Assembly: GCA_029038705.1 (NCBI GenBank)
Contig: GCA_029038705.1_4346.1
Length of the DNA: 44,263 bases
Strand: one strand, 5' to 3'
Source: a phage
Below the pieces are notes generated by a model. That model saw only the letters and a program-made list of their open reading frames with translations, did no database searches and had not been told where the DNA came from. The position numbers and the translations under genes are program-made. Shown one piece after another: positions 1,666-30,417 of the stretch. Each line of letters opens with the position of its first letter. Position 1 is the first letter of the stretch.

Positions 1666-1934
1666 CACTCCACCCCCTCCACATGTGTAACTGACCCACA
1701 GTTCGCGCACTCGACGTAATCAGGGAACTGGTCTTTGTATTTCTGTAACTCGGCTTCCGCTTTTTCTGCCCACGCTAAAAAGTCGAAAGCGGCATTGAGC
1801 ATCTGCGTACGCCATGTCCTGAGTTCATTGAACTTACGCTCAAGTTCCGCGTAGTCTTCGTAACCAACCCAGTCACCATCGTCGTGCGGCCCTATTAAAC
1901 CGCCTTGTAATAAATATCTCTGTACCATAATCAC
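1665..1934 (-). CDS. Hypothetical protein
   Basis: 89 aa ORF with C-terminal CANCGS motif; start overlaps the upstream stop. Confidence 0.5.
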   Translation of the reverse strand: MIMVQRYLLQGGLIGPHDDGDWVGYEDYAELERKFNELRTWRTQMLNAAFDFLAWAEKAEAELQKYKDQFPDYVECANCGSVTHVEGVE

Positions 1935-2134
1935 TTCTCCTGTTTACCAAGTCGCTTAGGTGAGCAGATAGCGCGTACCTCTGAATCGTTAGGCTTGTCG
2001 CCCTGAAACAAGAAGTGCGCGTTCTCTGCGGCGCGTGCCGCTGACTGGCACGCCTCCATAGAATAAAACGTTTCTGTTGCCGCCAGGTGCATCTGACCCG
2101 CAGATAACACCCAGATAAAGAGGATGCTGGTCAT
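1931..2134 (-). CDS. Hypothetical small protein with N-terminal hydrophobic (signal-like) segment
   Basis: 67 aa; MTSILFIWVLSAGQMHLAA at the N-terminus. Confidence 0.45.
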   Translation of the reverse strand: MTSILFIWVLSAGQMHLAATETFYSMEACQSAARAAENAHFLFQGDKPNDSEVRAICSPKRLGKQEK

Positions 2135-2212
2135 TTGTAGCGAACCTCTGGTTCAGCGTAGCCATTGTCTTTCCGGGCCGGGGTGAACCCAAACCGGCTC
2201 CGGAACCATATT

Positions 2213-2398
2213 TCAAACTGCTGCAAAGTGAGTCTCACTTCCTGGTAACTTGAAGCCGTTGTCGGTCCGCGCCACGTTCCACTCAATCCCACCGTGGTAC
2301 ACAACCATGTCATCTAAATCCAGGTCTATAACGGTTCCTACTTTGAAGATGCCTTTAGTCAGTTCACTGTCTCTTTTTGTAACTTTAACTTCTAACAT
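2213..2398 (-). CDS. Hypothetical protein
   Basis: 61 aa ORF directly downstream of promoter 2431-2459; GAGGAAAACG precedes the ATG. Confidence 0.5.
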   Translation of the reverse strand: MLEVKVTKRDSELTKGIFKVGTVIDLDLDDMVVYHGGIEWNVARTDNGFKLPGSETHFAAV

Positions 2399-2430
2399 TT
2401 CGTTTTCCTCTGTCTCGTCTGTGTAAATGA

Positions 2431-2459
2431 ATAGTAGCCTATTCTATCTTAGTGTGCAA
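2431..2459 (-). promoter_or_regulatory. Sigma70-like promoter (TTGCAC-N17-TACTAT) carrying the AATAG-N4-CTATT element
   Basis: On the minus strand: TTGCAC, 17 nt, TACTAT. Plus strand carries GAATAGTAGCCTATTC. Confidence 0.55.
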
Positions 2460-2466
2460 GTAAATT

Positions 2467-2637
2467 TTATTGGTGTTTTAAAGATAATCGTTCGCCACGA
2501 ATCCAGTAGTACCTCGGGCGTCTGGCCCACTGGCACCAGCGCATAACACGGTACTTGTTGCCGTCTGACGCAACAATAAGCCCGAATCGCTTTTCTCCGT
2601 TTCTACCGGTCCAGGTTACGATGTCATTCAGTTTCAT
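2467..2637 (-). CDS. Hypothetical small protein
   Basis: 56 aa ORF (MKLNDIVTWTGRNGEKRF...), below the 60 aa track cutoff; fills an otherwise empty gap. Confidence 0.3.
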   Translation of the reverse strand: MKLNDIVTWTGRNGEKRFGLIVASDGNKYRVMRWCQWARRPRYYWIRGERLSLKHQ

Positions 2638-2771
2638 TGTTGCGTCTCCTGCAATAGTCGCTTCGATTGTTGCGTTTGGTGAAAGTGTCGCCTTTTGACG
2701 ACACTAAGTTAAAGTTGTACGCTGCTGTGTAGCAGCGTAAGTCACTCAGTAAAATCCCAAACTATTGAACA

Positions 2772-2972
2772 TCACACTTCCGGCGGTTCAGGTAACGGCA
2801 TCCAGTGAGTCACGTACTTATCGTAGTGATTCCAGAAAGGCTTTCTCCCGTCATCAGGAACGATGTAATAATCGTGTTGAACTGCGTTATTTAACGTTTC
2901 ATACACCAGGAATTCTTTATCTGTACTACCGTTGCCCGGCAGCATCTCACTACACTTAATCCACTCACCCAT
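2772..2972 (-). CDS. Hypothetical protein
   Basis: 66 aa ORF in the early minus-strand operon. Confidence 0.5.
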   Translation of the reverse strand: MGEWIKCSEMLPGNGSTDKEFLVYETLNNAVQHDYYIVPDDGRKPFWNHYDKYVTHWMPLPEPPEV

Positions 2973-2975
2973 ATC

Positions 2976-3119
2976 TCACCTCGTATTCATCGCAGTTTGA
3001 ACACCAGCTTTCCACGCCCGCCACGCGAGACGTGTCTTAACGTTCAGGTACTCTTTCTTTGAACCCTTGTTAACCGGCAGACCCTCGACGATGGCCCACC
3101 GTTCGAATGCTTCTCTCAT
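2976..3119 (-). CDS. Hypothetical small protein
   Basis: 47 aa ORF (MREAFERWAIVEGLPVNKG...); its ATG overlaps the upstream stop (ATGA). Confidence 0.3.
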   Translation of the reverse strand: MREAFERWAIVEGLPVNKGSKKEYLNVKTRLAWRAWKAGVQTAMNTR

Positions 3120-3322
3120 AACTCAACCCCGTGGTGCTTAAGAAAACTGTTTAACTTGTACTCACGGTACTGTGCTACCTCCTTAGCATGAGCCAAATGC
3201 CACGACTTCAACGGGGTGTACTTCGCCTTTTCCCAGCATTCAACACCAAACTCGGCGGCGCGCAGACCGCCAATCAGACGGCGTAAGCGGAATTCGTTAT
3301 ACGGACTCATACCAACCTCCAC
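3116..3322 (-). CDS. Hypothetical protein
   Basis: 68 aa ORF. Confidence 0.5.
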   Translation of the reverse strand: MEVGMSPYNEFRLRRLIGGLRAAEFGVECWEKAKYTPLKSWHLAHAKEVAQYREYKLNSFLKHHGVEL

Positions 3323-3364
3323 AACGCGTGCACCACATAAACGGCGCTGATGATTAAAACAAAC

Positions 3365-3586
3365 TTATTCACGGCAACCTCCCTCAGAGTCGTCGGCACG
3401 AGCATCATGATTCGATGCCGGTTCGAGTAAAGTGACCACACCACTTTCCTTCGTCAGAAGGATGTAAACCGTCCGCAAATGTGCGTACTGTTTTAGCCAG
3501 GGACCGATTTCGGATTTACTGTTGAATTCTTTACTGGCTATGGTTTGTTTTGTCTCTTTCGATTTAATCTCTAGCTTAATCATCAC
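3365..3586 (-). CDS. Hypothetical protein
   Basis: 73 aa ORF. Confidence 0.5.
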   Translation of the reverse strand: MMIKLEIKSKETKQTIASKEFNSKSEIGPWLKQYAHLRTVYILLTKESGVVTLLEPASNHDARADDSEGGCRE

Positions 3587-4486: not shown

Positions 4487-4669
4487 ATGTCGCATTATAT
4501 GACGCAGAATGAAGTAGCTGAACGTATCGGGGTGACACGTCAGACAATTAATAACTGGTTGCGCAGCGGCAAATTCCCTGACTGCTGTATTAAGGTTATG
4601 GGCCGCCGTTTACCGGGAACATTTGACCGTAATAAAGTCGAAGCATGGATTAAGGAGAACGTGAAATGA
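4487..4669 (+). CDS. Small HTH DNA-binding protein (AlpA/MerR-excisionase-like fold)
   Basis: MSHYMTQNEVAERIGVTRQTINNWLRSGKFP is a helix-turn-helix signature. AGGAGA sits 7 nt upstream; the track's longer ORF from 4373 has no RBS. Confidence 0.6.
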   Translation: MSHYMTQNEVAERIGVTRQTINNWLRSGKFPDCCIKVMGRRLPGTFDRNKVEAWIKENVK

Positions 4670-4956
4670 AAGGCGTAATTTTCCACAATAAAGCAGAAAA
4701 CGAAGTGTATATGGTTCACTCCGTGGCAGGAGAGTTCGCTTTATGCTTCAATATCTCTTGCCATCTTGATACCTACCGGCCTTTCTGCGTAGAAACAGAA
4801 ATGAAGCTAATTAGCTTACGCCAACTAAGCACCATGTCGGCATCGCTTAACGTAAGAGATAATCTCGAGTATATCGACTTCTATTTCGGCGATGATTTGG
4901 TCGAGGAATATTTTGAAGAGTATAAAAATTTGCTGGAAGGGTTGGCTAAACGGTAA
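4666..4956 (+). CDS. Hypothetical protein
   Basis: 96 aa ORF; ATGA overlap with the upstream gene. Confidence 0.5.
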   Translation: MKGVIFHNKAENEVYMVHSVAGEFALCFNISCHLDTYRPFCVETEMKLISLRQLSTMSASLNVRDNLEYIDFYFGDDLVEEYFEEYKNLLEGLAKR

Positions 4957-5025
4957 AAAGAAACCCCAACGCAAGAACGTCGGGGCCAAAGCACAAATCA
5001 TCAAAGTAAGCACAAGGATTATACA

Positions 5026-5154
5026 ATGACGAAGTTAATAGTTCCACAGCTGCGCCGACAGAAACACGGCGCCGATTTCTTCGCGCCGGTAAAGATGAAC
5101 CGCGCAATGCGCCGTATGCAGGAAGCCTTAGAACGTGCGGAGAAAAAGAAATGA
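5026..5154 (+). CDS. Hypothetical small basic protein
   Basis: 42 aa ORF (MTKLIVPQLRRQKHG...), AAGGA upstream; ATGA overlap with the next gene. Confidence 0.35.
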   Translation: MTKLIVPQLRRQKHGADFFAPVKMNRAMRRMQEALERAEKKK

Positions 5155-7373
5155 ATATTGTTTTTGCAACGCTGCGTAACACATTCGATAAAAACCCTGT
5201 AGCGCGTGAAATGCCGCTGGAGCAGTTTGTCGAGTATGTCTGCGATACATCGAAGCGTTTATCCGTGGACCCGTCATGGACTAAGGAAGAGTACGACGCT
5301 GCCAAGATTAAACAGAAAGCTATTGCGCCTGTTGGTGGTCGCCGTAAAAACGCTATCCTGGAAGACAGTGTGGTTAAGTTCGATTTCGACCATCTCAACC
5401 GTACTCAGTACCGCGACCTGACACGCAAATTCAAGAACGCGCCGTTCTTCAATATTCTGCACACAACGGCATCGCATCAGCACGCATGTAAAAACGGAGA
5501 TTACGCTTTCCGCGTTCTGGTTCCAGCTCGCACGCCGTTTAACTCTAACGACGCGTGGATGGTGCAACGTGCTATTTGTGCAGAGTTAGAAATAGACGAA
5601 GCGTTGCGCGACCACTGCACAGAAGACGGCAACCGCCTTATCTACCTGCCGCATAAAGAGTCGAAGATAACGGTTACAGAAGGGCGTGTTATCCGTGCTG
5701 AGCGGTACATCAAGAAAGCCGAAGAGATGGGGTTGCGTAAGCGTGAGGCTAAAACACTTGCCGCTGATGAGCATGGGCTTAACGCGGATATAGCACACTT
5801 CTGCGAAGCCGAGCTTGGCCTTGACGCTTTATCTTCCGGGCGCGGGTACGAAGTGCCATGCCCTAACGAACATCTGCATACAGGCAAGGGCTCCACCAGC
5901 ATAATGCTCGACGGTAAAGAAGTGCGCTTTGTCTGCCAGCATACAAACAACGGCGCTTGCACCGAGCTTAACCGTAGGCAGCATTTGGCCCTGCGTATGT
6001 GTGGCCTACCCGACGAGCTTAACATAGATAAGCAACCTATCAGCATTAACAGCATTCGTGCGGCTCTGCCTGATTTACCGGAAGAAGAGATTGAAGAACT
6101 ACACCGCACAGAGAACGAGGACCCAGTAACTTGCAGCCTCGACGACCTGGAAGACGACGAGGACTCAGAGGAGGACGAGTTACCGGAGCCGGTAAAGGCT
6201 GATTTCGTCGTTGAGGGGTACATGCCGTCGGATTGTATCTGGGATATCGTCGGGGAATCTGGCACGTACAAATCGTTCTATACGCTGGGGATGATGTACC
6301 TCAGCGCCGCCGGGTACAGGTTTGCGGGGGCGGATACCCAGCGTTGCCACCATTTCTATATTGATGGTGAGGGTGGCGCAGCTACACGCACCCGTATTGA
6401 TGCACTAGCGGCTAAATATGGCGGGGAAGGTAAAGATTATGTACACGTCATCGATATGGGCGAAGTCGGCAAACTTAAAAGCCTGATTAAGTTAATGCGC
6501 GAAACTGCTGGCGACGAGCCAATTGGCATGGTTGCGTTCGACACCCTTAACCAGACCCTGGCACTGACGATTGATAAGTTCGACGAGAACAGTTCATCAA
6601 CAGCAATCGGCATGGGTAAAGTTATCGCCATTCTGAAAGAAGTACGCGATGCAACTAAAGCCGCAGTAGGCGTTGTCCACCATACGCCGAAGGGTGGAAA
6701 GAAAGCACGCGGCAGTGGGGCGCTGTATGCGGGTGTTGACGTGGAACTGACAATCGAACGTGCAACCGACCGTCAGATAAACGTATATCACTCGAAATTC
6801 AAGCACGGGCCTCAGCAGAAGACGGTTGGCATGGTGCTGGAGTCGGTACAGTTCCGTGAAGCGCCGCCGCCTAAAGAATACCGAGCGGTTGAGTTCCTGG
6901 GTAGCACAGAGGAATACGGCACAATCGTAAACCTGGACCTGCCTGAACCACACAAGGCGCTTGTGTTGATGCCGTGGGGTTTCGAGCCGTTCAAAACTGA
7001 CGAGGAGAAAGAGCGGGAAGAAGGGTTGACGAAAGAAGGTAAGCAAAAAGTAAAGGAAGAAGTTAAACGCGGCAGGGATGAAGTAAGGAAGGAGTCAATA
7101 CTTTCGGCACTGGAAGACCTGCAACAGTCAGATGACACAGGTCGCGGTTTTACTCAGCAGCAGATAGTGGCTCGTTCCGGTGACTTCTCTGTGACTAACA
7201 CCCATCTTGATAAAATGTTGAAAGATGGAGAACTAATGCTTGGTTGCGATGCTAACGGCGAAGTAGTACCGAGAACATATCGTATACCCGAAAGAATAGG
7301 TGATAGATTAAGGCCGAAGACACTATACGAACCAAATGAGATGCTGGTGGTGACAGAGGAGGATTTGGAATAG
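5151..7373 (+). CDS. Replicative primase-helicase-like protein (N-terminal primase-like region, Cys/His cluster, C-terminal RecA/DnaB-type P-loop ATPase)
   Basis: 740 aa. Walker A-like GESGTYKS, Walker B-like VAFDTL, Cys/His cluster CPNEHLHTG...CQHTNNGAC, and a C-terminal acidic/basic tail. Domain assignment is by eye. Confidence 0.65.
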   Translation: MNIVFATLRNTFDKNPVAREMPLEQFVEYVCDTSKRLSVDPSWTKEEYDAAKIKQKAIAPVGGRRKNAILEDSVVKFDFDHLNRTQYRDLTRKFKNAPFFNILHTTASHQHACKNGDYAFRVLVPARTPFNSNDAWMVQRAICAELEIDEALRDHCTEDGNRLIYLPHKESKITVTEGRVIRAERYIKKAEEMGLRKREAKTLAADEHGLNADIAHFCEAELGLDALSSGRGYEVPCPNEHLHTGKGSTSIMLDGKEVRFVCQHTNNGACTELNRRQHLALRMCGLPDELNIDKQPISINSIRAALPDLPEEEIEELHRTENEDPVTCSLDDLEDDEDSEEDELPEPVKADFVVEGYMPSDCIWDIVGESGTYKSFYTLGMMYLSAAGYRFAGADTQRCHHFYIDGEGGAATRTRIDALAAKYGGEGKDYVHVIDMGEVGKLKSLIKLMRETAGDEPIGMVAFDTLNQTLALTIDKFDENSSSTAIGMGKVIAILKEVRDATKAAVGVVHHTPKGGKKARGSGALYAGVDVELTIERATDRQINVYHSKFKHGPQQKTVGMVLESVQFREAPPPKEYRAVEFLGSTEEYGTIVNLDLPEPHKALVLMPWGFEPFKTDEEKEREEGLTKEGKQKVKEEVKRGRDEVRKESILSALEDLQQSDDTGRGFTQQQIVARSGDFSVTNTHLDKMLKDGELMLGCDANGEVVPRTYRIPERIGDRLRPKTLYEPNEMLVVTEEDLE

Positions 7374-7400: not shown

Positions 7401-7606
7401 TCACCTAGCGCCAGCCACTTGGCGTCTACTTCCAGCACTTCCGCCAGTTTAAACAGCGTTGCCGGGCGTACGTCCTGAGTTACCCCGAGTGCAAGCTGGT
7501 TAATCGCGCCCTGGGAAACGCCGGCCAGAACAGCCAGACGGCGCTGGGAGATACCGAGTTCTTTACGGCGTTGCTCTACACGGATGCCTAGTTCAGATGG
7601 TTGCAT
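7391..7606 (-). CDS. XRE-family (Cro/CI-type) HTH transcriptional regulator
   Basis: 71 aa; ELGISQRRLAVLAGVSQGAINQLALG is the XRE helix-turn-helix pattern. Divergent from the flanking plus-strand genes. Confidence 0.8.
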   Translation of the reverse strand: MQPSELGIRVEQRRKELGISQRRLAVLAGVSQGAINQLALGVTQDVRPATLFKLAEVLEVDAKWLALGEGA

Positions 7607-7626
7607 GTCAGTTACTCCTTAGTCAG

Positions 7627-7655
7627 TTGATATGTGAATAGTACCATATTAATTA
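7627..7655. promoter_or_regulatory. Operator-like copy 1 (GTGAATAGTACCATATTAAT), probably overlapping the leftward promoter of the XRE gene
   Basis: Degenerate copy of the AATAG-N4-CTATT element (second half ATATT), immediately upstream of the XRE gene start. Confidence 0.45.
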
Positions 7656-7670
7656 TTTTAGAAAAGCCCA

Positions 7671-7699
7671 TTGACATGTGAATAGTTCGCTATTATAGT
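7671..7699 (+). promoter_or_regulatory. Sigma70-like promoter (TTGACA-N17-TATAGT) with embedded AATAG-N4-CTATT palindrome
   Basis: TTGACATGTGAATAGTTCGCTATTATAGT; drives the gene at 7728. Confidence 0.6.
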
Positions 7700-7727
7700 T
7701 AGCCCATACCAAACGAGAGGGGCAGAT

Positions 7728-7955
7728 ATGAACACAATCACTGGGGCCATAGCTAAAGGTTTTCGAGCAATTTTCGGCGCTCCGCAAGAAGTGTGCACAA
7801 AACATAAATTTGTACTTTCTTGCGTAGTAGGGGATGAGTTTGATGGGTTCGATAAACTTGTTGTCTGTGACCATTGCGGGCAAGAAGCTATTCAACACTC
7901 AAACGGTAAATTTGAACTAATAGACGATAGCCTTACTGAAGGCGACGGTGAGTAA
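7728..7955 (+). CDS. Hypothetical protein (possible Cys-containing zinc-binding motif)
   Basis: 75 aa; CTKHK...CDHCG; GAGAGGGG RBS upstream. Confidence 0.5.
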   Translation: MNTITGAIAKGFRAIFGAPQEVCTKHKFVLSCVVGDEFDGFDKLVVCDHCGQEAIQHSNGKFELIDDSLTEGDGE

Positions 7956-7979
7956 CTTACACAAACAGGAGAGAAACAA

Positions 7980-8480
7980 ATGTTAGAGAAATTCTTAGTA
8001 TTGCTGGAACGTTTCGTAGTTGCACATGAACTGATTGCCGCGAACAGTGCGAAACAAGTTGTTCAGGTTGCCACGCCGCTGGAAGTAGAGACGGTATCGT
8101 ACACCAAAGAAGCGGTAGCTGAGTGCGCTGAAGAAGCAACAAAAGAAATCCCGGTTGAAGGTGAAGACGTAGTTGACACTAAACCGGCGGAGGAAGAGAA
8201 GCCAAAACGCAAGCCGCGTAAAGCTAAAGTAGAGGAACCTGCGCCAGAACCGGAAGAAGAGAAAGAAGAAGTCGATTACAAGTCTCTGCGTGACCAGATT
8301 CAGGCCATCGACGATGCAATTAATGAAGGTCCTAGCGATGCCGCGTGCGACGATTCTGATGAACTGCTGGAAGAGTTCACTGGTAAGAAAATGAAGATTG
8401 CAGCGATTAAAGACGAAGACCTGGCTGAATACCTGGAACGCTTGACAGCAATCAAGAACAAGTATTTCGAAGAAGAATAA
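7980..8480 (+). CDS. Hypothetical highly acidic protein with a short Lys/Arg-rich insert
   Basis: 166 aa; long D/E runs (EEEKPKRKPRKAKVEEPAPEPEEEKEE, DDSDELLEEF, KYFEEE). Confidence 0.55.
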   Translation: MLEKFLVLLERFVVAHELIAANSAKQVVQVATPLEVETVSYTKEAVAECAEEATKEIPVEGEDVVDTKPAEEEKPKRKPRKAKVEEPAPEPEEEKEEVDYKSLRDQIQAIDDAINEGPSDAACDDSDELLEEFTGKKMKIAAIKDEDLAEYLERLTAIKNKYFEEE

Positions 8481-23797: not shown

Positions 23798-25815
23798 TAT
23801 TTGAACCCCGGCGCGTTTCTTGTGGCCTTGCGAGCCTTGCTAATCTTACTGTTGCTGTTCTGCAAAGACGCGGCAACCTGTTCTTCAATGATGATACGCA
23901 AACGGCCCTCATCATCTTGCTCAGTGGATACGTTGCCGATTTGAGAACTCGTGTTGTTTACGATAGTAACATTAGATGGGCCACTATTTCCGCTATTATT
24001 ACCGTTTAACTGCTGCCGTGTTTGACTTGCATTGGTCGCCCTGCCAGAACCCGCCATCTTGATAATCTCAGGGCCGCGTTCACCAACCAGGTAACTACCG
24101 CCAGCGTTCATTTGCCCGCCTTGCTCACGCGCGCCGCTAATCTTGGCGATGTTCGCCACCCCCGCCGCGACAGCCAGACCCGCGGCAACCGGAGCGAGTG
24201 CCGGGCCGACAATTGGAATAGCAGCAGTTGATTTATAGGCTTCGATAGCAGCCGTGTAAGTGGCAATAGTCGCTTGCGTTATGGCGAACGCTTTGTACGC
24301 AGCGGACGTCTCCCCCAGTGCGGATTTAGCATCCGCTGCCATGCTGCCGAATGCGTCGGCGGTGGCGTTGGCTTGTGCAATATTGCTCTGTTCGTTCAGG
24401 TTACGCACTGCATTAGCGTATTCTTCTTCGCTGATTAGTTTCTGTTTAAGGAAATCGTCCAGTTGCTTAAGTTTGGCGTCATTCTGCCGTTGGATTTCCT
24501 CGAACTCTGTGCCACCAAGCGCCTGTAGTTTCTCCAGATATGCATCAGCATTGTTATACAGCGCATCTCGTTGTGCCTGAAACTCCGCCATGATGTCACT
24601 TTTCGACTTCTCGTAGTCAGCGTCGCTTACGAGTTGCTTGTCGTGGAACTCCTGCAATTTAGCCAGTTTCTGTTTCTCTTTGGCGTCTATCCGTTCTAAC
24701 TCTGTTCCGGTGTTTGTGTCTATTTGAGCTATAAACTGGTCTGCGGCTTTCTGTGCGCTTTCCTGCGCGCGAGCGTCGGCGCGGGCTTGAGCATCTGCTC
24801 GTTTCTTAGCTGCGGCAGCGATACGATTCTGCCTGTCTATTTCCTTCTGTGCCCTGTCCGCCTTATCCTTTTCATACGTCTTCTCAGATTGCTCTACCCC
24901 TTTTCGCTCGGCTGCGCGGGTCTTTTCCTCCACACCAAGGTAGTTAAGTTCATTTCGCAGTTTATTTATTTCCATCTGCGCTTCTGGCGTTTTGGCGTTT
25001 ATGCCGTCCAGGTAGGCGACCAGCCCTTCTCGAGCTCCAGGAACCCCAGCTGCGATTGCTTTCTGAGCAACTTCAATACTGCGTAACTCTTTGGCGGTCA
25101 ACCCCGCCGCTTCCGCAGCGGATTCGTACTGGAAAGCCACGGCCCCGGCAGCGTCCCCGCCTTGGGCTATCTGTGATGCGGCAAGGTTGGTGGTCAACTT
25201 CTGAAACAGAGATTGGGCTTTTGTTACCTTATCAATAGCTTCAACAATCTTATCTGCGGTGGAGTTAGCCTGTATGGCGGTTGCCTCTAGTGCCTTATTA
25301 AGAAATGCCATCTTCTCCGCTGTTGTTGCCCCGACAGCGTCCAGTTTTTCCAGTGCGTCATTCATGTCATACACACCGGGTGTGGCCTCATTAAGAGCGT
25401 CATCAAGGAACTTAGTAGCTTCCTCCAGTTGTTTAGCGGTATCCGTTGAGTTACTCAAAGACGCGTACAGCGCGCCGCCGATTACGGTGGCGATAGTCAA
25501 TACCGTGCCCGCAATTGGATTGAATGCGGACACTAACTGACTACCTTGTTGCGTGAAAGCCGTGAGGGCGGACTGCCCCCCTTGGATTTGTACGATAAAG
25601 TCCTGTACCTGATACCCAGCATTACCTATTGACGCCCGCATCGCGTTCATCTTCGGGGTTGCCGCGGAGGTGGTGTCCGTTAGTTTCTTTGTGCTGGAAT
25701 CCGCTTTCCCAGCGGAACTACTAAGGTTATCTAACTGCTTTGCTGCTTGCTCCGCTCCAGTTGCCTGGACTCGCACCATTAAACTCGCGGTATCAGCCAT
25801 TATAATCGTCCTCAT
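23797..25815 (-). CDS. Tail tape measure protein
   Basis: 672 aa; long Ala/Gln/Lys/Glu-rich coiled-coil core, C-terminal hydrophobic/Gly-rich segment (IVGPALAPVAAGLAVAAG...GERGPE). Confidence 0.8.
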   Translation of the reverse strand: MRTIIMADTASLMVRVQATGAEQAAKQLDNLSSSAGKADSSTKKLTDTTSAATPKMNAMRASIGNAGYQVQDFIVQIQGGQSALTAFTQQGSQLVSAFNPIAGTVLTIATVIGGALYASLSNSTDTAKQLEEATKFLDDALNEATPGVYDMNDALEKLDAVGATTAEKMAFLNKALEATAIQANSTADKIVEAIDKVTKAQSLFQKLTTNLAASQIAQGGDAAGAVAFQYESAAEAAGLTAKELRSIEVAQKAIAAGVPGAREGLVAYLDGINAKTPEAQMEINKLRNELNYLGVEEKTRAAERKGVEQSEKTYEKDKADRAQKEIDRQNRIAAAAKKRADAQARADARAQESAQKAADQFIAQIDTNTGTELERIDAKEKQKLAKLQEFHDKQLVSDADYEKSKSDIMAEFQAQRDALYNNADAYLEKLQALGGTEFEEIQRQNDAKLKQLDDFLKQKLISEEEYANAVRNLNEQSNIAQANATADAFGSMAADAKSALGETSAAYKAFAITQATIATYTAAIEAYKSTAAIPIVGPALAPVAAGLAVAAGVANIAKISGAREQGGQMNAGGSYLVGERGPEIIKMAGSGRATNASQTRQQLNGNNSGNSGPSNVTIVNNTSSQIGNVSTEQDDEGRLRIIIEEQVAASLQNSNSKISKARKATRNAPGFK

Positions 25816-26062
25816 TACGGCCTTCGAACAGTGCGTCTAGGCCCATTATTAAGTCTACCTCAAGCAACGAGAACGGCTGTTTATGCAACTCTGCGTACGC
25901 TGTAAGGTGGTGATATTGGAGCATTTCCCTTGGTATTAGCACATTATTGCGGCTTACAAACTTCAATGCGTAGTATTTATCCATTATTTTCATCATATCG
26001 CTCGGGCATTCCGGCGGGGTTTCCTCAGGCTCCTTCGGTACAGGTAACCCCATAGCCGCCAT
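25793..26062 (-). CDS. Tail assembly chaperone, T-like downstream ORF
   Basis: 89 aa between the G-like chaperone and the tape measure. Its frame is open about 39 codons upstream of the ATG and is -1 relative to the preceding ORF. Confidence 0.4.
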   Translation of the reverse strand: MAAMGLPVPKEPEETPPECPSDMMKIMDKYYALKFVSRNNVLIPREMLQYHHLTAYAELHKQPFSLLEVDLIMGLDALFEGRNEDDYNG

Positions 26063-26151: not shown

Positions 26152-26568
26152 CTACTTTACAGATAAAGCTTTGCGGCTCTCAGCATGGTGTTGAGCGACA
26201 GCCCCTCCCAACCCTTTATACTCCTTCAACAGCTTGACCAACGCTTTCTTAGTGAACTTCTCCTCGAAGGACCACCCTACAACAACAACGGCAGCAAGTG
26301 CATCGTTAAGTTTAGCCAATTCACTGTTTAATTCCGTGTTATAGCGCGCCCAGTCCCCTTTCTCGCGGCACTCCGCGTCGAGCGGTTTCAGGCGGTCAAG
26401 GATGTCGCGGTAAGCGGAGATAAAATCCTTAGCTGCGGCGATTGAGTCGTCGCAGTCAGGCCCCATCACCTGCAACCACTCCCCTGAGTCACTGCCGTCC
26501 GGTAGCAGGATAGGCATCTTAGTTCCCGCAGCGTGGCGGGACGCGAAATAAAAATCAGAAAGTTTCAT
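26152..26568 (-). CDS. Tail assembly chaperone (gpG-like)
   Basis: 138 aa, acidic; canonical position between the major tail and tape measure genes. Confidence 0.5.
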   Translation of the reverse strand: MKLSDFYFASRHAAGTKMPILLPDGSDSGEWLQVMGPDCDDSIAAAKDFISAYRDILDRLKPLDAECREKGDWARYNTELNSELAKLNDALAAVVVVGWSFEEKFTKKALVKLLKEYKGLGGAVAQHHAESRKALSVK

Positions 26569-26677
26569 TCTTTAATCCTTTGGTTAAGAGGTTGTTGGTT
26601 AAAGAGAAATGCACCAGGCGGTAACCAACCGCTTTTCGTGCGCGACACTAGGTGCAAAATTATTCTAACACACTACT

Positions 26678-26706
26678 TGCACACCCCAATATAATAGGGT
26701 ACTATT
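26678..26706 (+). promoter_or_regulatory. Sigma70-like promoter (TTGCAC-N17-TACTAT) with AATAG-N4-CTATT element, driving the plus-strand cassette
   Basis: TTGCACACCCCAATATAATAGGGTACTAT; same architecture as the minus-strand early promoters at 2431 and 4040. Confidence 0.55.
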
Positions 26707-26745
26707 CACTTACACCAACGTTATTAACTTAAATAAGGAATTAAA

Positions 26746-27072
26746 ATGCGTAAATTAATCATAGCCATGGGTCTTATTTCTTTTTGCGCGGTAGGGTCCC
26801 AGTGTGAGCAAGTATATAGTGAAACCCCTTTAGTAACTTCCGGGGTGCTTGATTCAGCCCCTCCGTCTGCCGTTAGTGCGTTTAAAACCGCTGCTATTCG
26901 CGAATGTAATGCTGCCGTGCGCGCTGGCGGGTCTGGCCTTGGTCTTGAATTGATGACATCCCTTGTTGTTGAGTCTGTAGATGTTAACAGCCCCACTTTC
27001 AGCAGCCTACTGTTAGCCACTCGTTTGCAAATGGTTACAACCGGATGGTCAATAGGCGCAGAAAGTAAATAG
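26746..27072 (+). CDS. Hypothetical small secreted protein (N-terminal signal peptide)
   Basis: 108 aa; MRKLIIAMGLISFCAVGSQC signal-like start (no canonical lipobox); AAGGAA RBS. The antisense ORF 26724..27020 is judged spurious. Confidence 0.45.
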   Translation: MRKLIIAMGLISFCAVGSQCEQVYSETPLVTSGVLDSAPPSAVSAFKTAAIRECNAAVRAGGSGLGLELMTSLVVESVDVNSPTFSSLLLATRLQMVTTGWSIGAESK

Positions 27073-27137
27073 TTGCCTTTATTTAAAGGAATGCACTGTG
27101 GTTAAATAGGACAAATCCTAAACACGAGGAAATAGGC

Positions 27138-28292
27138 ATGGCCCAGAAGAAAATAACCGACGAACAGTTACAGGAAGAATTGAACGCTGGGATGAAGAAT
27201 ATCGACATTGCTCGTAAATACGGCATCTCAGACCGCGTTATTCGTATCCGTAAAGCGAAACTAGCGAAGAAAGGCGTAGGCCACGGGCGTGACGTTAGCC
27301 ACCTTGTGCCGGACGGCTACAAGATTAAGGGTACATCGTCTCTGGTTGATGAGTTAGGCAACACTAAACTGCAATGGGTTAAGACCGACACCGATGCGGA
27401 ACGTCAGGTCGAGTTAATGAAAGCCGTTGTGGACGAGATGAAAAAAGATTTACCCAAGTATAAGCCAGTCACTTTGGCCAAAAATGGGACAGATGACGAC
27501 TTATTAAATCTTTACACAATAACAGACCATCACATAGGGATGTTGGCGTGTCAAGAAGAAGGCGGGGATGATTACGACACCACAATCGCGGAATCTCTCG
27601 CGGTTGACTGGTTCAACAGTGCGGTTTGTATGAGTCCACAGAGTGGTGAATGTATCATTAACTTCTTAGGGGACCAAATGCACTACGACGGCATGAAGGC
27701 AATGACCCCTATGAGCGGTCATATTCTTTCAGCGGATAGTCGCCTGTTTAAAATGATACGCACGGCCATTAAGGTTATCAAGCTGGCTGTCTCACTGTGC
27801 TTGCGAAAACACAAGAAGGTTAAACTTCTTATCTGTGAAGGTAACCACGACCTTAGTTCTTCTCTGTGGCTCCGGGAGATGTTCTACGAGGTATACACAA
27901 ATGAGCCTCGCGTCGAGGTTAACCGGGAGGTGTCACCGTATTATGCGTACAAGTTCGGGGATTGTATGATTTCAGCACATCACGGGCATTGTTCTAACTT
28001 TGCTAAGGTAGAGCAGGCTATAATCGGTAAGTACCGGGAGATGTACGGGCGGTGTAAGTTCACATATGTCCATACGGGGCACCTCCATCACAGGGCGGTT
28101 AAAGAGACTAATCTGCTAATTGTTGAGCAACACCAGACATTAGCGGCTAAAGATGAGTATTCTAGTAAGGGCGGCTATTATTCAGGTAGAAGCGCAAATG
28201 TGATTACATACCACAAACGTTACGGGGAGGTGTCCCGCATAAGTATACCTGTCGAAATGCTGCGAGACATAAACCCAAAATCGACATACTAA
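27138..28292 (+). CDS. HTH domain fused to a calcineurin-like metallophosphoesterase
   Basis: 384 aa. N-terminal NIDIARKYGISDRVIRIRKAKL (HTH-like). Phosphoesterase motifs in canonical order: TDHHIG, GDQMHYDG, EGNHD, HHGH, HTGHLHH. Confidence 0.65.
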   Translation: MAQKKITDEQLQEELNAGMKNIDIARKYGISDRVIRIRKAKLAKKGVGHGRDVSHLVPDGYKIKGTSSLVDELGNTKLQWVKTDTDAERQVELMKAVVDEMKKDLPKYKPVTLAKNGTDDDLLNLYTITDHHIGMLACQEEGGDDYDTTIAESLAVDWFNSAVCMSPQSGECIINFLGDQMHYDGMKAMTPMSGHILSADSRLFKMIRTAIKVIKLAVSLCLRKHKKVKLLICEGNHDLSSSLWLREMFYEVYTNEPRVEVNREVSPYYAYKFGDCMISAHHGHCSNFAKVEQAIIGKYREMYGRCKFTYVHTGHLHHRAVKETNLLIVEQHQTLAAKDEYSSKGGYYSGRSANVITYHKRYGEVSRISIPVEMLRDINPKSTY

Positions 28293-28307
28293 AATATAGG
28301 TGAAAGT

Positions 28308-28808
28308 ATGGATTGGAGTGAGGTTTTTAGCTACAAAAATGGCGTCCTATACTGGAAAGTCAAATCATGTCGCCGTAACGATGTGAATATAGGTGATGTG
28401 GCCGGGAGTTTGTGTAAAAACGGCTATTGGTATGTCATGTTTGGTAACCGTAAGTTTAAAAGGTCGAGGGTGGTGTATGAGATGTTCTCAGGTAAGATTC
28501 CAAAAGGATTTGTCATAGACCATACTAACCATGATACCTGTGACGACAGAATTGAAAACCTGTCATGCAAATCTAGAAGGGACAACATGGTTAACGTGAA
28601 AAGGCGCAAAGATAATACCTCTGGAGTTACGGGTGTGGCGCGGAAAGGAAAAACTAAGTGGAGAGCTTATGCCGTTGTCAACGGTAAGCAGATTAGTAAA
28701 ACATTTGACAGAATAGAGGACGCTTTCGCTGAAAGAATTTACATGTCTGTGGCTAATAGGTTTCACATAAATCATGGACTGACAACATTCAACAACGGTT
28801 ATAAATAG
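28308..28808 (+). CDS. HNH homing endonuclease with AP2-like domain (paralogue of 13912..14409)
   Basis: GFVIDHTNHDTCDDRIENL...(HNH) and SGVTGVARKGKTKWRAYAVVNGKQISKTF (AP2-like). Confidence 0.8.
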   Translation: MDWSEVFSYKNGVLYWKVKSCRRNDVNIGDVAGSLCKNGYWYVMFGNRKFKRSRVVYEMFSGKIPKGFVIDHTNHDTCDDRIENLSCKSRRDNMVNVKRRKDNTSGVTGVARKGKTKWRAYAVVNGKQISKTFDRIEDAFAERIYMSVANRFHINHGLTTFNNGYK

Positions 28809-28817
28809 GGTGTAGAG

Positions 28818-29111
28818 ATGACTTCAAAATACAACCGCACAATGACAAACACTCACGGCAGCACCATGACAGTAGACGTTTATGATGTGCTCCGTGCTTT
28901 CGATATCCGTGACCCGGCGCTACAGCATGCGTTAAAGAAGTTATTGTGCATGGGCTTGCGCGGACACAAGGACACCGGAACCGACTTAGCAGAAGCAATT
29001 GAAAGTCTGGAGAAGTTACGGGAATACCGAAGCAATATTGATGAGTTAAAATATTATGAAAACAATATATGTAATCCGAGTATACGACGAAGAATGGGAC
29101 GAGTGGGTTGA
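28818..29111 (+). CDS. Hypothetical protein
   Basis: 97 aa ORF. An overlapping alternative 53 aa ORF (29056..29217) exists; the true 3' end is uncertain. Confidence 0.4.
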   Translation: MTSKYNRTMTNTHGSTMTVDVYDVLRAFDIRDPALQHALKKLLCMGLRGHKDTGTDLAEAIESLEKLREYRSNIDELKYYENNICNPSIRRRMGRVG

Positions 29112-29213
29112 TATTTATGCCGTTAGTAGTAAGGAAGAGGCCTCTAAAGAAATGACAGAACGAAGGGACCGAGGCCAGTTAACTAACTTCTACGAAATGC
29201 CGTTCAAAAGTGA

Positions 29214-29248
29214 GTAAGAAAAGGCCCCTTTCGGGGCCTTAGTTTTAT
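29214..29248. terminator. Bidirectional terminator between the plus-strand cassette and the major tail gene
   Basis: AAGGCCCC-TTTC-GGGGCCTT with T-rich flanks on both strands. Confidence 0.6.
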
Positions 29249-30417
29249 GCGTAACTAATACGTTGAATTACGATAGACGACTGATACTGGTTGCCTGTGG
29301 ACTGCCCTTCTATACTTTGGGTAATTGACTCAGGCCCGCCAATCTCAGGTGTAACCGCCGTGAGTTCTGCGCGTTTCAAACTAAAAGACATAGCCCCGTT
29401 TACCCCCGCCAGAATAGAGTTAATCTCCACCTGCTGTTCGTTGATAAACTTCTGAATCATAGCCATGTCGTACAGCTTGCCGGAGATGGAGAAGGTGTTA
29501 GCCGCGCGGCTACGTTCCACAAACGCTACGTTAGTGTTGCCGAGTTCGAACTGCGCCGACGCGCTGTTGTCGTTGGTGATGGTCAGGCTGTCGCAACGCA
29601 ACGGCGTAGAACCGTCGAACACAGAAACATCGACCGAGGAGAATGGCTCGGCACCAAACGTAACAGAGGAGAAATCAGAACCAGACGGCTGCGTGGTGAG
29701 AATCTCCTGACTGCGACCGATGAACGGGAAGCTGCCAGTTACCATCGCGTTAACAGCCTGTTCGATGGTAAAACCAGAAACTTCCACGCCTTTGGTTAAC
29801 GTGTACGCGTCAGTACCGCCGCACTGGCCTTTGTACCAGGTAAGGATAGAGAACGTCTTACACGCGTTACCGGTTTCCAACGTGTCGCCAGTTTTAGCCT
29901 TACTAGTTTTTGTCTCGGTGGTCAGGGTGTGTTGGATGCCCGCACCAGTAACAACCGTAGCCTTTACTGCAGTAACAATAAATGGTTTTGCGTTATCGCC
30001 TGTTAAATCGGTAAACGCAATCAGGTCGCCTACCCCAACTCCGTCAGTGATAAAACTGCCGGTAGCGCGTGTGAACGTCTTGCCCGCGGGTGCGACGGTA
30101 ATCGATAGTCCTGACAGGGAAACGCCGGATTGCCACGTAGAGCCTAAAGCCCCGGCTAACCAGTCGTCCTGACTTTTAGAGCTAAGCTCAATAGCGTATT
30201 CTCCGCTAACCTGCTTGTTACCGGTGCGGATGGATGTGGTTTCTCGGCTGCCGTCAAGTTCGTTGGAGGTCAGCGTGTCGCGGGTAATGGCAGGAACGCC
30301 GCCCGTGTTGCGCAACGGCGACCATACCGGGTTAGCCGGTGTTACGCCCGGGGTAGTTTCTGCCACATAGAATTGCGCAGTATTCGCGCCCTTAAAAGGA
30401 GTTGTAGCCATATTCAC
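29245..30417 (-). CDS. Major tail (tube) protein
   Basis: 390 aa, Thr/Ser/Gly-rich; positioned between connector genes and chaperones. Confidence 0.6.
   Translation of the reverse strand: MNMATTPFKGANTAQFYVAETTPGVTPANPVWSPLRNTGGVPAITRDTLTSNELDGSRETTSIRTGNKQVSGEYAIELSSKSQDDWLAGALGSTWQSGVSLSGLSITVAPAGKTFTRATGSFITDGVGVGDLIAFTDLTGDNAKPFIVTAVKATVVTGAGIQHTLTTETKTSKAKTGDTLETGNACKTFSILTWYKGQCGGTDAYTLTKGVEVSGFTIEQAVNAMVTGSFPFIGRSQEILTTQPSGSDFSSVTFGAEPFSSVDVSVFDGSTPLRCDSLTITNDNSASAQFELGNTNVAFVERSRAANTFSISGKLYDMAMIQKFINEQQVEINSILAGVNGAMSFSLKRAELTAVTPEIGGPESITQSIEGQSTGNQYQSSIVIQRISYA

Follow-up and report, generated by a model that had tools for sequence, protein, structure and literature searches.

According to a preprint on phage T5, the predicted metallophosphatase A1 is both necessary and sufficient for degradation of host DNA; in addition, A1 binds to RNA polymerase and has a dampening effect on pre-early transcription (bioRxiv 10.64898/2026.04.02.716235). 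For mycobacteriophage A10ZJ24, gp48, a metallophosphoesterase (MPE), has phosphodiesterase activity and damages host DNA and genome integrity (PMC12287305). Here we describe a gene at positions 27138–28292 on the plus strand of a 44,263-nucleotide phage contig (GCA_029038705.1_4346.1), the whole of which is called the window in the following. The gene encodes a protein in which a helix-turn-helix (HTH) segment is fused to an MPE domain, abbreviated HTH-MPE. We propose that this protein is an HTH-tethered, metal-dependent DNA nuclease that is made before the late genes and works in a way similar to T5 A1 and to the mycobacteriophage MPEs. We give this proposal a probability of about 0.45 and put it forward tentatively.

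The proposal starts from the architecture of the gene and its product, which contains the following elements:

27126–27130, plus strand: GAGGA Shine-Dalgarno sequence (ribosome-binding site), 7 nt before the ATG, read from the sequence
27138–28292, plus strand: HTH-MPE gene, ATG start, 384 amino acids and a stop codon, belonging to PHROG 704 and orthologous to coliphage T1 gp16
27159–27269, plus strand: basic three-helix HTH, residues 8–44, from AlphaFold2 helices, weak GerE/FixJ matches and Pfam matches in relatives
27318–27446, plus strand: beta-hairpin (residues 61–85) and helix (residues 87–103) between HTH and MPE, from AlphaFold2 and block conservation
27492–28271, plus strand: MPE domain, residues 119–378, from Foldseek and the Pfam matches of the family
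27522–27539, plus strand: motif I, TDHHIG, residues 129–134, with D130 and H132 invariant
27669–27692, plus strand: motif II, GDQMHYDG, residues 178–185, with G178 and D179 invariant
27837–27851, plus strand: motif III, EGNHD, residues 234–238, with N236 and H237 invariant
27978–27989, plus strand: motif IV, HHGH, residues 281–284, with H282 invariant
28071–28091, plus strand: motif V, HTGHLHH, residues 312–318, with G314 and H317 invariant and H315 kept in at least 90% of sequences

The open reading frame (ORF) runs from the ATG through 384 codons without a stop, and the opposite minus strand is closed by many stops. A preliminary description of this DNA had named the five motif strings, and all of them are present in canonical order; the order of these predicted motifs is well beyond chance. 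The invariant positions were read from an alignment of 73 relatives with 31–93% identity, in which the invariant columns (D130, H132, G178, D179, N236, H237, H282, G314 and H317) coincide exactly with the ligand positions of MPEs. The family consensus is TDYHLG for motif I, GDFLH for motif II and EGNHD for motif III. Histidine H182, three residues past the aspartate of motif II, is nearly invariant, and a conserved loop VTPxSGHxLDADxR follows directly after this motif. Because the catalytic residues are invariant over such a range of identity, the protein is probably an active enzyme and carries no decayed domain. Since the ligand set is intact, hydrolysis of a phosphodiester would be expected.

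The predicted structure leads to the same domain. An AlphaFold2 model built from 91 sequences (mean predicted local distance difference test score, pLDDT, of 87.5 and predicted template modelling score of 0.74) contains an alpha/beta domain at residues 119–378. With Foldseek, 133 matches in the PDB were obtained at E ≤ 0.001, and all 50 matches listed have the MPE fold. The best PDB match is Mre11 (4o43, E 5e-8) with a probability of 1.00. The same probability is found for COG0622/YfcE-like proteins, acid sphingomyelinase, PolD DP1, Rv0805, Vps29, GpdQ and purple acid phosphatase, with identities of 9–13% throughout; PolD DP1, a proofreading exonuclease, is also near the top. Model and matches together indicate the four-layer alpha/beta fold of MPEs. 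The claim of the preliminary description that an HTH is fused to a calcineurin-like metallophosphoesterase is thus backed by the family profiles and by the predicted fold. A Metallophos profile search, also suggested there, gave a divided result: the single sequence has no match to PF00149 or PF12850 even at E ≤ 1, and at the family level each of the two profiles is matched by 17 of the 73 members, with a best E of 3.9e-5. The assignment as MPE is therefore made on these family-level matches and on the fold. Judged from its profiles, the HTH-MPE family is a divergent branch of the MPEs.

The N-terminal segment is what sets a possible DNA substrate in view. In the AlphaFold2 model, helices are formed at residues 8–16, 21–28 and 32–44 with pLDDT values of about 83–88. 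Searches of Pfam, NCBIfam and the PDB with the single protein gave faint matches to HTHs of the GerE/FixJ type at residues 8–45 and none to an MPE, and among the 73 members Pfam matches were found to HTH_1 (14), Sigma70_r4_2 (10), HTH_50 (8), HTH_23 (8) and GerE (6). The first 50 residues are basic, with an isoelectric point (pI) of 10.1 in this protein and a family median of 9.5 compared to 6.4 for the MPE domain; the catalytic domain of this protein has a near-neutral pI. The HTH is therefore real, basic and fixed in position throughout the family, which argues for a nucleic-acid-associated enzyme. It is also the least conserved part of the protein, and since the catalytic residues are invariant, selection appears to act mainly on the enzyme. 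A linker of low confidence connects the HTH to the beta-hairpin and the following helix. G65, S67, G74, W80 and K82 are invariant in this hairpin-helix region (alignment A2), which may belong to the HTH as its wing or may extend the MPE core.

The protein is not new and belongs, as an ordinary member, to a phage family that is very large and already catalogued. It matches PHROG 704 ('DNA repair exonuclease') with E 1e-150, residues 3–375 aligning to positions 1–389 of the 390 in the profile. T1 gp16 (ST16) falls into the same profile with E 7e-155, and the PHROG 704/T1 gp16 proteins have the same succession of HTH, hairpin-helix and MPE, without substantive difference. Identity is 99.7% to protein QIG59201 of Escherichia phage XY1 and about 93% to Jerseyvirus proteins. 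By tblastn, relatives were detected in 2056 of 50,697 phage records, 1940 of which cover at least 80% of the protein; they are carried by Drexlerviridae, Guernseyvirinae, Seuratvirus-type, Vibrio, Campylobacter, Rhodobacter, roseophage and cyanophage genomes. A HMMER search over 1.84 billion cluster representatives yielded 4221 clusters at E ≤ 1e-3 and 1031 at E ≤ 1e-30. Bacterial and archaeal genomes contribute 86 matches among 185,579 species, largely on proteobacterial contigs that are apparently prophages. One match, a 92%-identical gene at 4496–5647 of the 13-kb scaffold23 of Taishania pollutisoli (Bacteroidota), stands in a Jerseyvirus-like gene order, and this scaffold is most likely phage contamination of the assembly and no prophage.

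As a sequence the protein is routine, since hundreds of phage genomes in the databases already contain it with an annotation. The names given to members of the family range from 'DNA repair exonuclease', 'metallophosphoesterase', 'serine/threonine protein phosphatase' and 'calcineurin-like phosphoesterase' to 'recombination endonuclease subunit', 'winged helix-turn-helix domain-containing protein' and, often in metagenomic records, 'DNA polymerase II small subunit'. All of these names are homology guesses. The family is present in about 4% of sequenced phage genomes and persistent in T1-like phages, so that a functional label would cover thousands of genes.

Sequence cannot place the MPE domain in a subfamily, because the profile searches against the PDB fail to do so. 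The full-length family profile retrieved HTH matches, and the only MPE chains were Mre11/SbcD and a 'Nuclease MPE' at a non-significant E of about 1. We compared the family profile with ten reference proteins by hhalign and hmmsearch: SbcD, CpdA, YfcE, ApaH and LpxH of E. coli, T4 gp47, lambda NinI, Bxb1 gp47, and A1 and A2 of T5. T4 gp47 ranks first, followed by Bxb1 gp47, YfcE, T5 A1, SbcD and CpdA, then A2, LpxH, ApaH and NinI; no bit score reaches 6, so that these comparisons have value as a ranking only. At a probability of 14%, hhalign aligns T4 gp47 over 184 columns, which take in motifs I–V and the TLxAxD...RG segment behind them. With the motif forms of SbcD, T4 gp47 and Mre11 as the yardstick for nuclease-type enzymes, the forms of motifs I–III look most like those of nuclease-type MPEs. 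The motif I consensus TDYHLG compares with DWHLG in E. coli SbcD and T4 gp47. Motif IV with its HGH is closer to YfcE and has the YfcE form.

Canonical membership in Mre11/SbcD was considered and rejected, as it fails on the capping domain and on the Rad50/SbcC partner. The protein stops about 65 residues past motif V, and in the AlphaFold2 model this remainder consists of strands of the MPE core and one short helix, with no capping domain. No match to Mre11_DNA_bind or SbcD_C was found in any of the 73 members. The window contains no gene for a Rad50/SbcC/gp46-type ATPase, its large ORFs being replication, tail, head or homing genes, and no SMC-like ATPase is a neighbour in the 162 related loci that we compared (IMG/VR and reference phages supplied 85, bacterial genomes 80; all counts apply within the fetched flanks).

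A protein phosphatase was considered as well. In such a role the enzyme would resemble lambda NinI and remove phosphate from serine, threonine or tyrosine residues of host or phage phosphoproteins. Where its gene closes a nin-like region and is followed by the antiterminator gene Q, the arrangement mirrors the order ninI-Q in lambda, and several database records read 'putative serine/threonine protein phosphatase'. The signature motifs of PPP phosphatases (GDxHG, GDxVDRG and GNHE) are absent, however, with TDHHIG, GDQMHYDG and GNHD found in their place. NinI comes last in the ranking with ApaH directly above it, and the 50 best Foldseek matches include no PPP structure. The PPP Ser/Thr type was therefore rejected, and we regard a protein phosphatase of any kind as extremely unlikely. 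The preliminary description had held that sequence cannot decide between nuclease, phosphatase and cyclic-nucleotide phosphodiesterase. This still stands, except that the PPP phosphatases and canonical Mre11/SbcD have dropped out of the choice.

For the DNA nuclease that we propose, the parts would work together as follows. The basic N-terminal HTH would hold the enzyme on double-stranded DNA, and the flexible linker and conserved hairpin-helix would join it to a binuclear-metal MPE domain. The metals would be bound by D130, H132, D179, N236, H282, H315 and H317, with H237 as the general acid. The enzyme would act alone, without a Rad50/SbcC-type ATPase and without the capping domain of Mre11. 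Its transcription unit would be an accessory, non-structural one, expressed ahead of the late structural operon or without dependence on it. The host chromosome would then be broken down as by T5 A1, which would shut off the host and supply deoxynucleoside monophosphates (dNMPs) for the phage. An alternative or added job would be the trimming of DNA ends or structures for phage replication and recombination.

The timing in this scheme can be compared with the related loci. The early-type transcription unit named in the preliminary description is an inference from gene orientation. The antiterminator Q gene (PF06530) stands immediately after the HTH-MPE gene in 7 loci, and because of this order the gene is placed at the end of a delayed-early, nin-like region there, which agrees with expression before the late genes. 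A consensus scan for sigma-70 promoters found none upstream of the gene on the plus strand of the window.

No universal partner gene is found across the 162 loci. Endolysins of three families are near in about 50 of them, proteins with a dATP/dGTP diphosphohydrolase N-domain in 21, a dNMP kinase in 20, a NinG-like gene in 11 and a PNKP-type HAD phosphatase also in 11, in 8 of these directly downstream and usually followed by a kinase. A YfbR-like HD protein is found among the neighbours as well. The nucleotide-salvage and DNA-processing genes in this set (dNMP kinase, PNKP-type HAD phosphatase, NinG-like) support the nuclease, as does the persistence of the HTH-MPE gene in Drexlerviridae (508 of 522 genomes, PMC13164509), and context and phage precedents, taken by analogy, favour DNA as the probable substrate.

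Several observations weigh against a DNA nuclease. The likeness to nucleases in the Foldseek search is no stronger than that to non-nuclease MPEs, at E of about 1e-7 to 1e-5. A profile of the MPE domain only (alignment A3) did not retrieve a single MPE protein from the PDB at E ≤ 10, and pairwise profile scores with the reference MPEs are tiny throughout. The best-conserved family-specific loops (EETGxDWD and LDAD) are acidic, an unusual property if they form a DNA-binding surface. A recombination exonuclease and a gp2.5-like annealing protein are already encoded by the phage. The gene is also found in temperate prophages, which usually spare the host DNA, and the nucleotide enzymes in its neighbourhood would suit a nucleotide substrate equally well. 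In the literature on T1, Drexlerviridae, Jerseyvirus, Kagunavirus, escape mutants and anti-defence we found annotations of the family only and no functional study.

Part of this evidence fits a phosphoesterase directed at nucleotides. Its substrate would be a cyclic mono- or oligonucleotide immune signal, an Ap4A-type compound or a derivative of (deoxy)nucleoside tri- or monophosphates, and the HTH would serve autoregulation or localisation. The acidic loops agree with such a substrate. The fold matches to Rv0805 (E 4e-7, on par with other MPEs), YfcE-like proteins and GpdQ are about equal to those of nucleases, and YfcE, which shares the form of motif IV, ranks third of the ten references; PF12850 is matched by 17 of the 73 members, as given above. 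The dNMP kinase, the dATP/dGTP diphosphohydrolase N-domain proteins, the YfbR-like HD protein and the HAD phosphatase would be suitable companions. In the window the gene lies in a lower-GC, accessory-like cassette beside a putative superinfection-exclusion gene, a typical site of counter-defence. On the other hand, the conserved basic DNA-binding HTH has no obvious use in a soluble hydrolase of small molecules, CpdA ranks sixth and thus below the nuclease references, and the literature search showed no tie to signalling defence systems. To our knowledge, the phage enzymes that degrade immune signals, Acb1 and Apyc1, have other folds, which we also count against this explanation. We consider a nucleotide substrate unlikely.

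The position of the gene next to lysis genes raises the question whether the protein is mainly a transcription factor. In the Drexlerviridae the gene is persistent and belongs to a conserved module, which 508 of 522 genomes contain and in which the lysis cassette follows directly downstream of the gene (2026 pangenome, PMC13164509). The HTH would then act on phage promoters or on RNA polymerase and time the late and lysis genes, and the MPE domain would be a sensor or a secondary activity. The Q gene directly downstream in the 7 loci and the endolysins nearby in about 50 are consistent with this, as are the likeness of the HTH to GerE/LuxR and sigma-70 region 4, a weak match of HTH-MPE to a 'late transcriptional activator' PHROG and the binding of RNA polymerase by T5 A1 as stated in the preprint. 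Adjacency in compact phage genomes is weak evidence, however. In Guernseyvirinae, including the window, the gene is far from the lysis genes (endolysin at 263–799), and the least conserved HTH together with the invariant catalytic residues points to selection mainly on the enzyme. A transcription factor is accordingly improbable in our judgement.

The HAD phosphatase deserves separate attention. A PNKP-type HAD phosphatase (PF25109, E 8.5e-21) and a P-loop kinase form a recurrent two-gene unit after HTH-MPE, as seen in Klebsiella phage IMGroot and others, including many Kagunavirus and Webervirus genomes. The annotation of the kinase varies between dNMP kinase, 'acid phosphatase' and 'replication factor C large subunit'. 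As a unit, phosphatase and kinase resemble a split T4 Pnkp. Together with such a pair, HTH-MPE could heal RNA ends as a 2',3'-cyclic phosphodiesterase and 3'-phosphatase, mending tRNAs cut by anticodon nucleases of the host in the way of the MPE domain of Clostridium thermocellum Pnkp. The order of HAD phosphatase and kinase directly downstream in 8 of the 162 loci speaks for this role. The pair is absent from the window and from most loci, the pnk-like gene of T1 is about 36 kb away, and no RNA ligase was seen in the related loci. Furthermore, a HAD 3'-phosphatase would leave the MPE redundant, and the HTH is a module for binding DNA and not RNA. Healing of RNA ends is therefore very unlikely, and we return to the DNA nuclease as the preferred explanation.

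The window is a near-complete genome of a Guernseyvirinae siphophage (Kagunavirus/Jersey-like). Its replication module comprises a helicase-primase, a PHROG 69 exonuclease, a gp2.5-like single-stranded DNA-binding and annealing protein, a DNA polymerase of the family-A type, a helicase and a primase. The structural and lysis genes include tail spike, tail, tape measure, chaperones, tail tube, head, portal, terminase and the endolysin. The HTH-MPE gene lies in a plus-strand cassette of about 2.5 kb (window 26569–29244), which interrupts the minus-strand tail operon, with the tail-tube gene (29245–30417) on one side and the tail assembly chaperones (26152–26568) on the other. The GC content of the cassette is 0.43–0.48 compared to 0.51–0.54 in the flanks. 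Because the cassette splits the tail operon, late transcripts would either read about 2.7 kb in antisense or restart before the chaperone genes. Besides HTH-MPE the cassette contains:

26746–27072, plus strand: 108-aa protein with a hydrophobic, signal-like N-terminus, PHROG 14165, first gene of the cassette
28308–28808, plus strand: HNH homing endonuclease immediately downstream of the MPE gene, phrog_99 at E 1e-49
28818–29111, plus strand: 97-aa ORF, matching phrog_2452 at 150–223 of 235 and phrog_17613 at 172–238 of 246
29056–29217, plus strand: short 53-aa ORF with no assignment that overlaps the end of the 97-aa ORF
29221–29240, both strands: bidirectional hairpin terminator AAGGCCCCTTTCGGGGCCTT, at the junction of the plus-strand cassette with the tail-tube gene of the minus strand

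In relatives, the slot of the 108-aa protein is taken by a small membrane protein annotated 'superinfection immunity'. The divergent intergenic region carries ACACTAnnTGCA twice, at 26645–26656 and 26670–26681 and thus 25 bp apart, with a TATAAT at 26690–26695 just downstream of the two copies. ACACTAnnTGCA is not enriched genome-wide, and in some Kagunavirus relatives the second copy alone is kept. The repeat could be an operator, part of a promoter or a product of chance.

At the other end of the cassette, the 97-aa ORF matches only the C-terminal ends of longer PHROGs, of which phrog_17613 is called 'ATPase', and has no Pfam match. It is either what is left of a longer gene or a small domain that stands on its own, and relatives have a 76-aa version. 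In the adjoining tail operon, the minus-strand ORFs 26152–26568 and 25793–26062 match phrog_15027 at positions 1–138 and 172–258 of 259. Two ORFs arranged in this manner are the usual signature of a programmed frameshift and would correspond to chaperones of the G-like/GT-like kind.

Three HNH/homing endonuclease genes are found in the genome (28308–28808, 13903–14409 and 37585–38997). An HNH gene occupies the same 3' slot in T1 (ST15), Vibrio phage K88 and Salmonella phage Ent3, and it is directly downstream of HTH-MPE in 14 of the 162 loci; the 3' flank of the gene may be a recurrent homing site. A related observation was made in XY1 (MN927225), where positions 7603–8166 encode a chimeric 187-aa 'calcineurin-like phosphoesterase superfamily domain protein'. 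Over its first 61 residues it differs by one observed mismatch from the N-terminus of the HNH endonuclease of the window, and its residues 30–187 have 86% identity to the C-terminal part of a Kagunavirus-type HTH-MPE. This chimera looks like the scar of an event in which a Jersey-type MPE allele, together with part of its HNH gene, replaced the resident allele.

If HTH-MPE is a nuclease that degrades host DNA, the 'DNA repair exonuclease' that is found in thousands of siphophages (T1-like, Jersey-like, 9g-like and marine) would serve as their factor for host-DNA degradation. T1-like and Jersey-like phages would be tied to the mechanism of T5 A1 and to defences that sense genome breakdown. This would also be of relevance to therapeutic phages, many of which belong to Kagunavirus, Jerseyvirus or Webervirus.

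Among the known systems, archaeal PolD DP1, a proofreading exonuclease, shares the MPE fold and differs by an OB fold and the partner DP2, neither of which the phage protein has. Mre11, SbcD and T4 gp47 have the same fold and similar forms of motifs I–III. They differ in having a capping/DNA-binding domain, the C-terminal Rad50-binding region of SbcD and an ATPase partner, all of which HTH-MPE lacks; identity to Mre11/SbcD is 10–12%, and the N-terminal HTH is an addition of the phage family. The MPEs of cluster A mycobacteriophages (Bxb1 gp47, L5 gp54 and A10ZJ24 gp48; PHROG 221) are likewise stand-alone, early-expressed phage enzymes and share the EGNHDL and HGH motif forms with the HTH-MPE family. 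In contrast to HTH-MPE they have 255 aa and no HTH, and they belong to another PHROG, with an hhalign probability of 7%. Bxb1 gp47, the homologue of A10ZJ24 gp48, is reportedly a recombination directionality factor and needed for phage DNA replication.

T5 A1 (PHROG 1745; T5 1706–3376) is similar to HTH-MPE in its build, with an N-terminal HTH, a linker and a divergent MPE, which is a likeness and no membership. In at least 7 of 48 relatives of A1, the N-terminus matches Pfam HTH_23, HTH_38, HTH_7 or HTH_3; none of the 48 matches Pfam Metallophos. The AlphaFold2 model of an A1 orthologue (pLDDT 89) has helices at residues 5–17, 26–41 and 44–56, a disordered linker and a large MPE-like catalytic body. 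An N-terminal HTH in A1 is mentioned neither in the abstract nor in the discussion of the T5 preprint, nor was it returned by a term search. A1 differs from HTH-MPE by its length of 556 aa and an extra domain of about 200 residues between HTH and MPE core, and, as described in the preprint, it is a pre-early gene of Demerecviridae and is partnered by a separate DNA-binding protein, A2.

Close structural kinship with T5 A1 was rejected, as the core PHROG 704 proteins lie outside the top 50 BFVD hits of the A1 model; there are also no reciprocal PHROG matches between T5 A1 and PHROG 704 proteins. Outside its own family, the top BFVD hits of the A1 model are other phage MPE proteins, and these overlap with the weaker matches of the HTH-MPE model. 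At the profile level, A1 and the HTH-MPE family align collinearly in the HTH (E 6e-4), in the extended motif III (E 8e-4) and in motifs IV–V (E 0.08), with probabilities of 21–29%. The family consensus of motif III is in fact longer than the core motif (EGNHDxxSSxWLRE) and aligns with VESNHDLALSRWL of T5 A1, so that EGNHDxxSxWL in HTH-MPE stands opposite ESNHDLALxRWL in A1. In their build the two families are thus similar, and a remote kinship between them is possible. A possible, though doubtful, extension is that HTH-MPEs of the T1 gp16 type and T5 A1 represent two branches of a single, widespread class of HTH-tethered phage metallo-nucleases that destroy the host chromosome and would be a source of N6-methyl-deoxyadenosine monophosphate (m6dAMP) for Metis-type defences.

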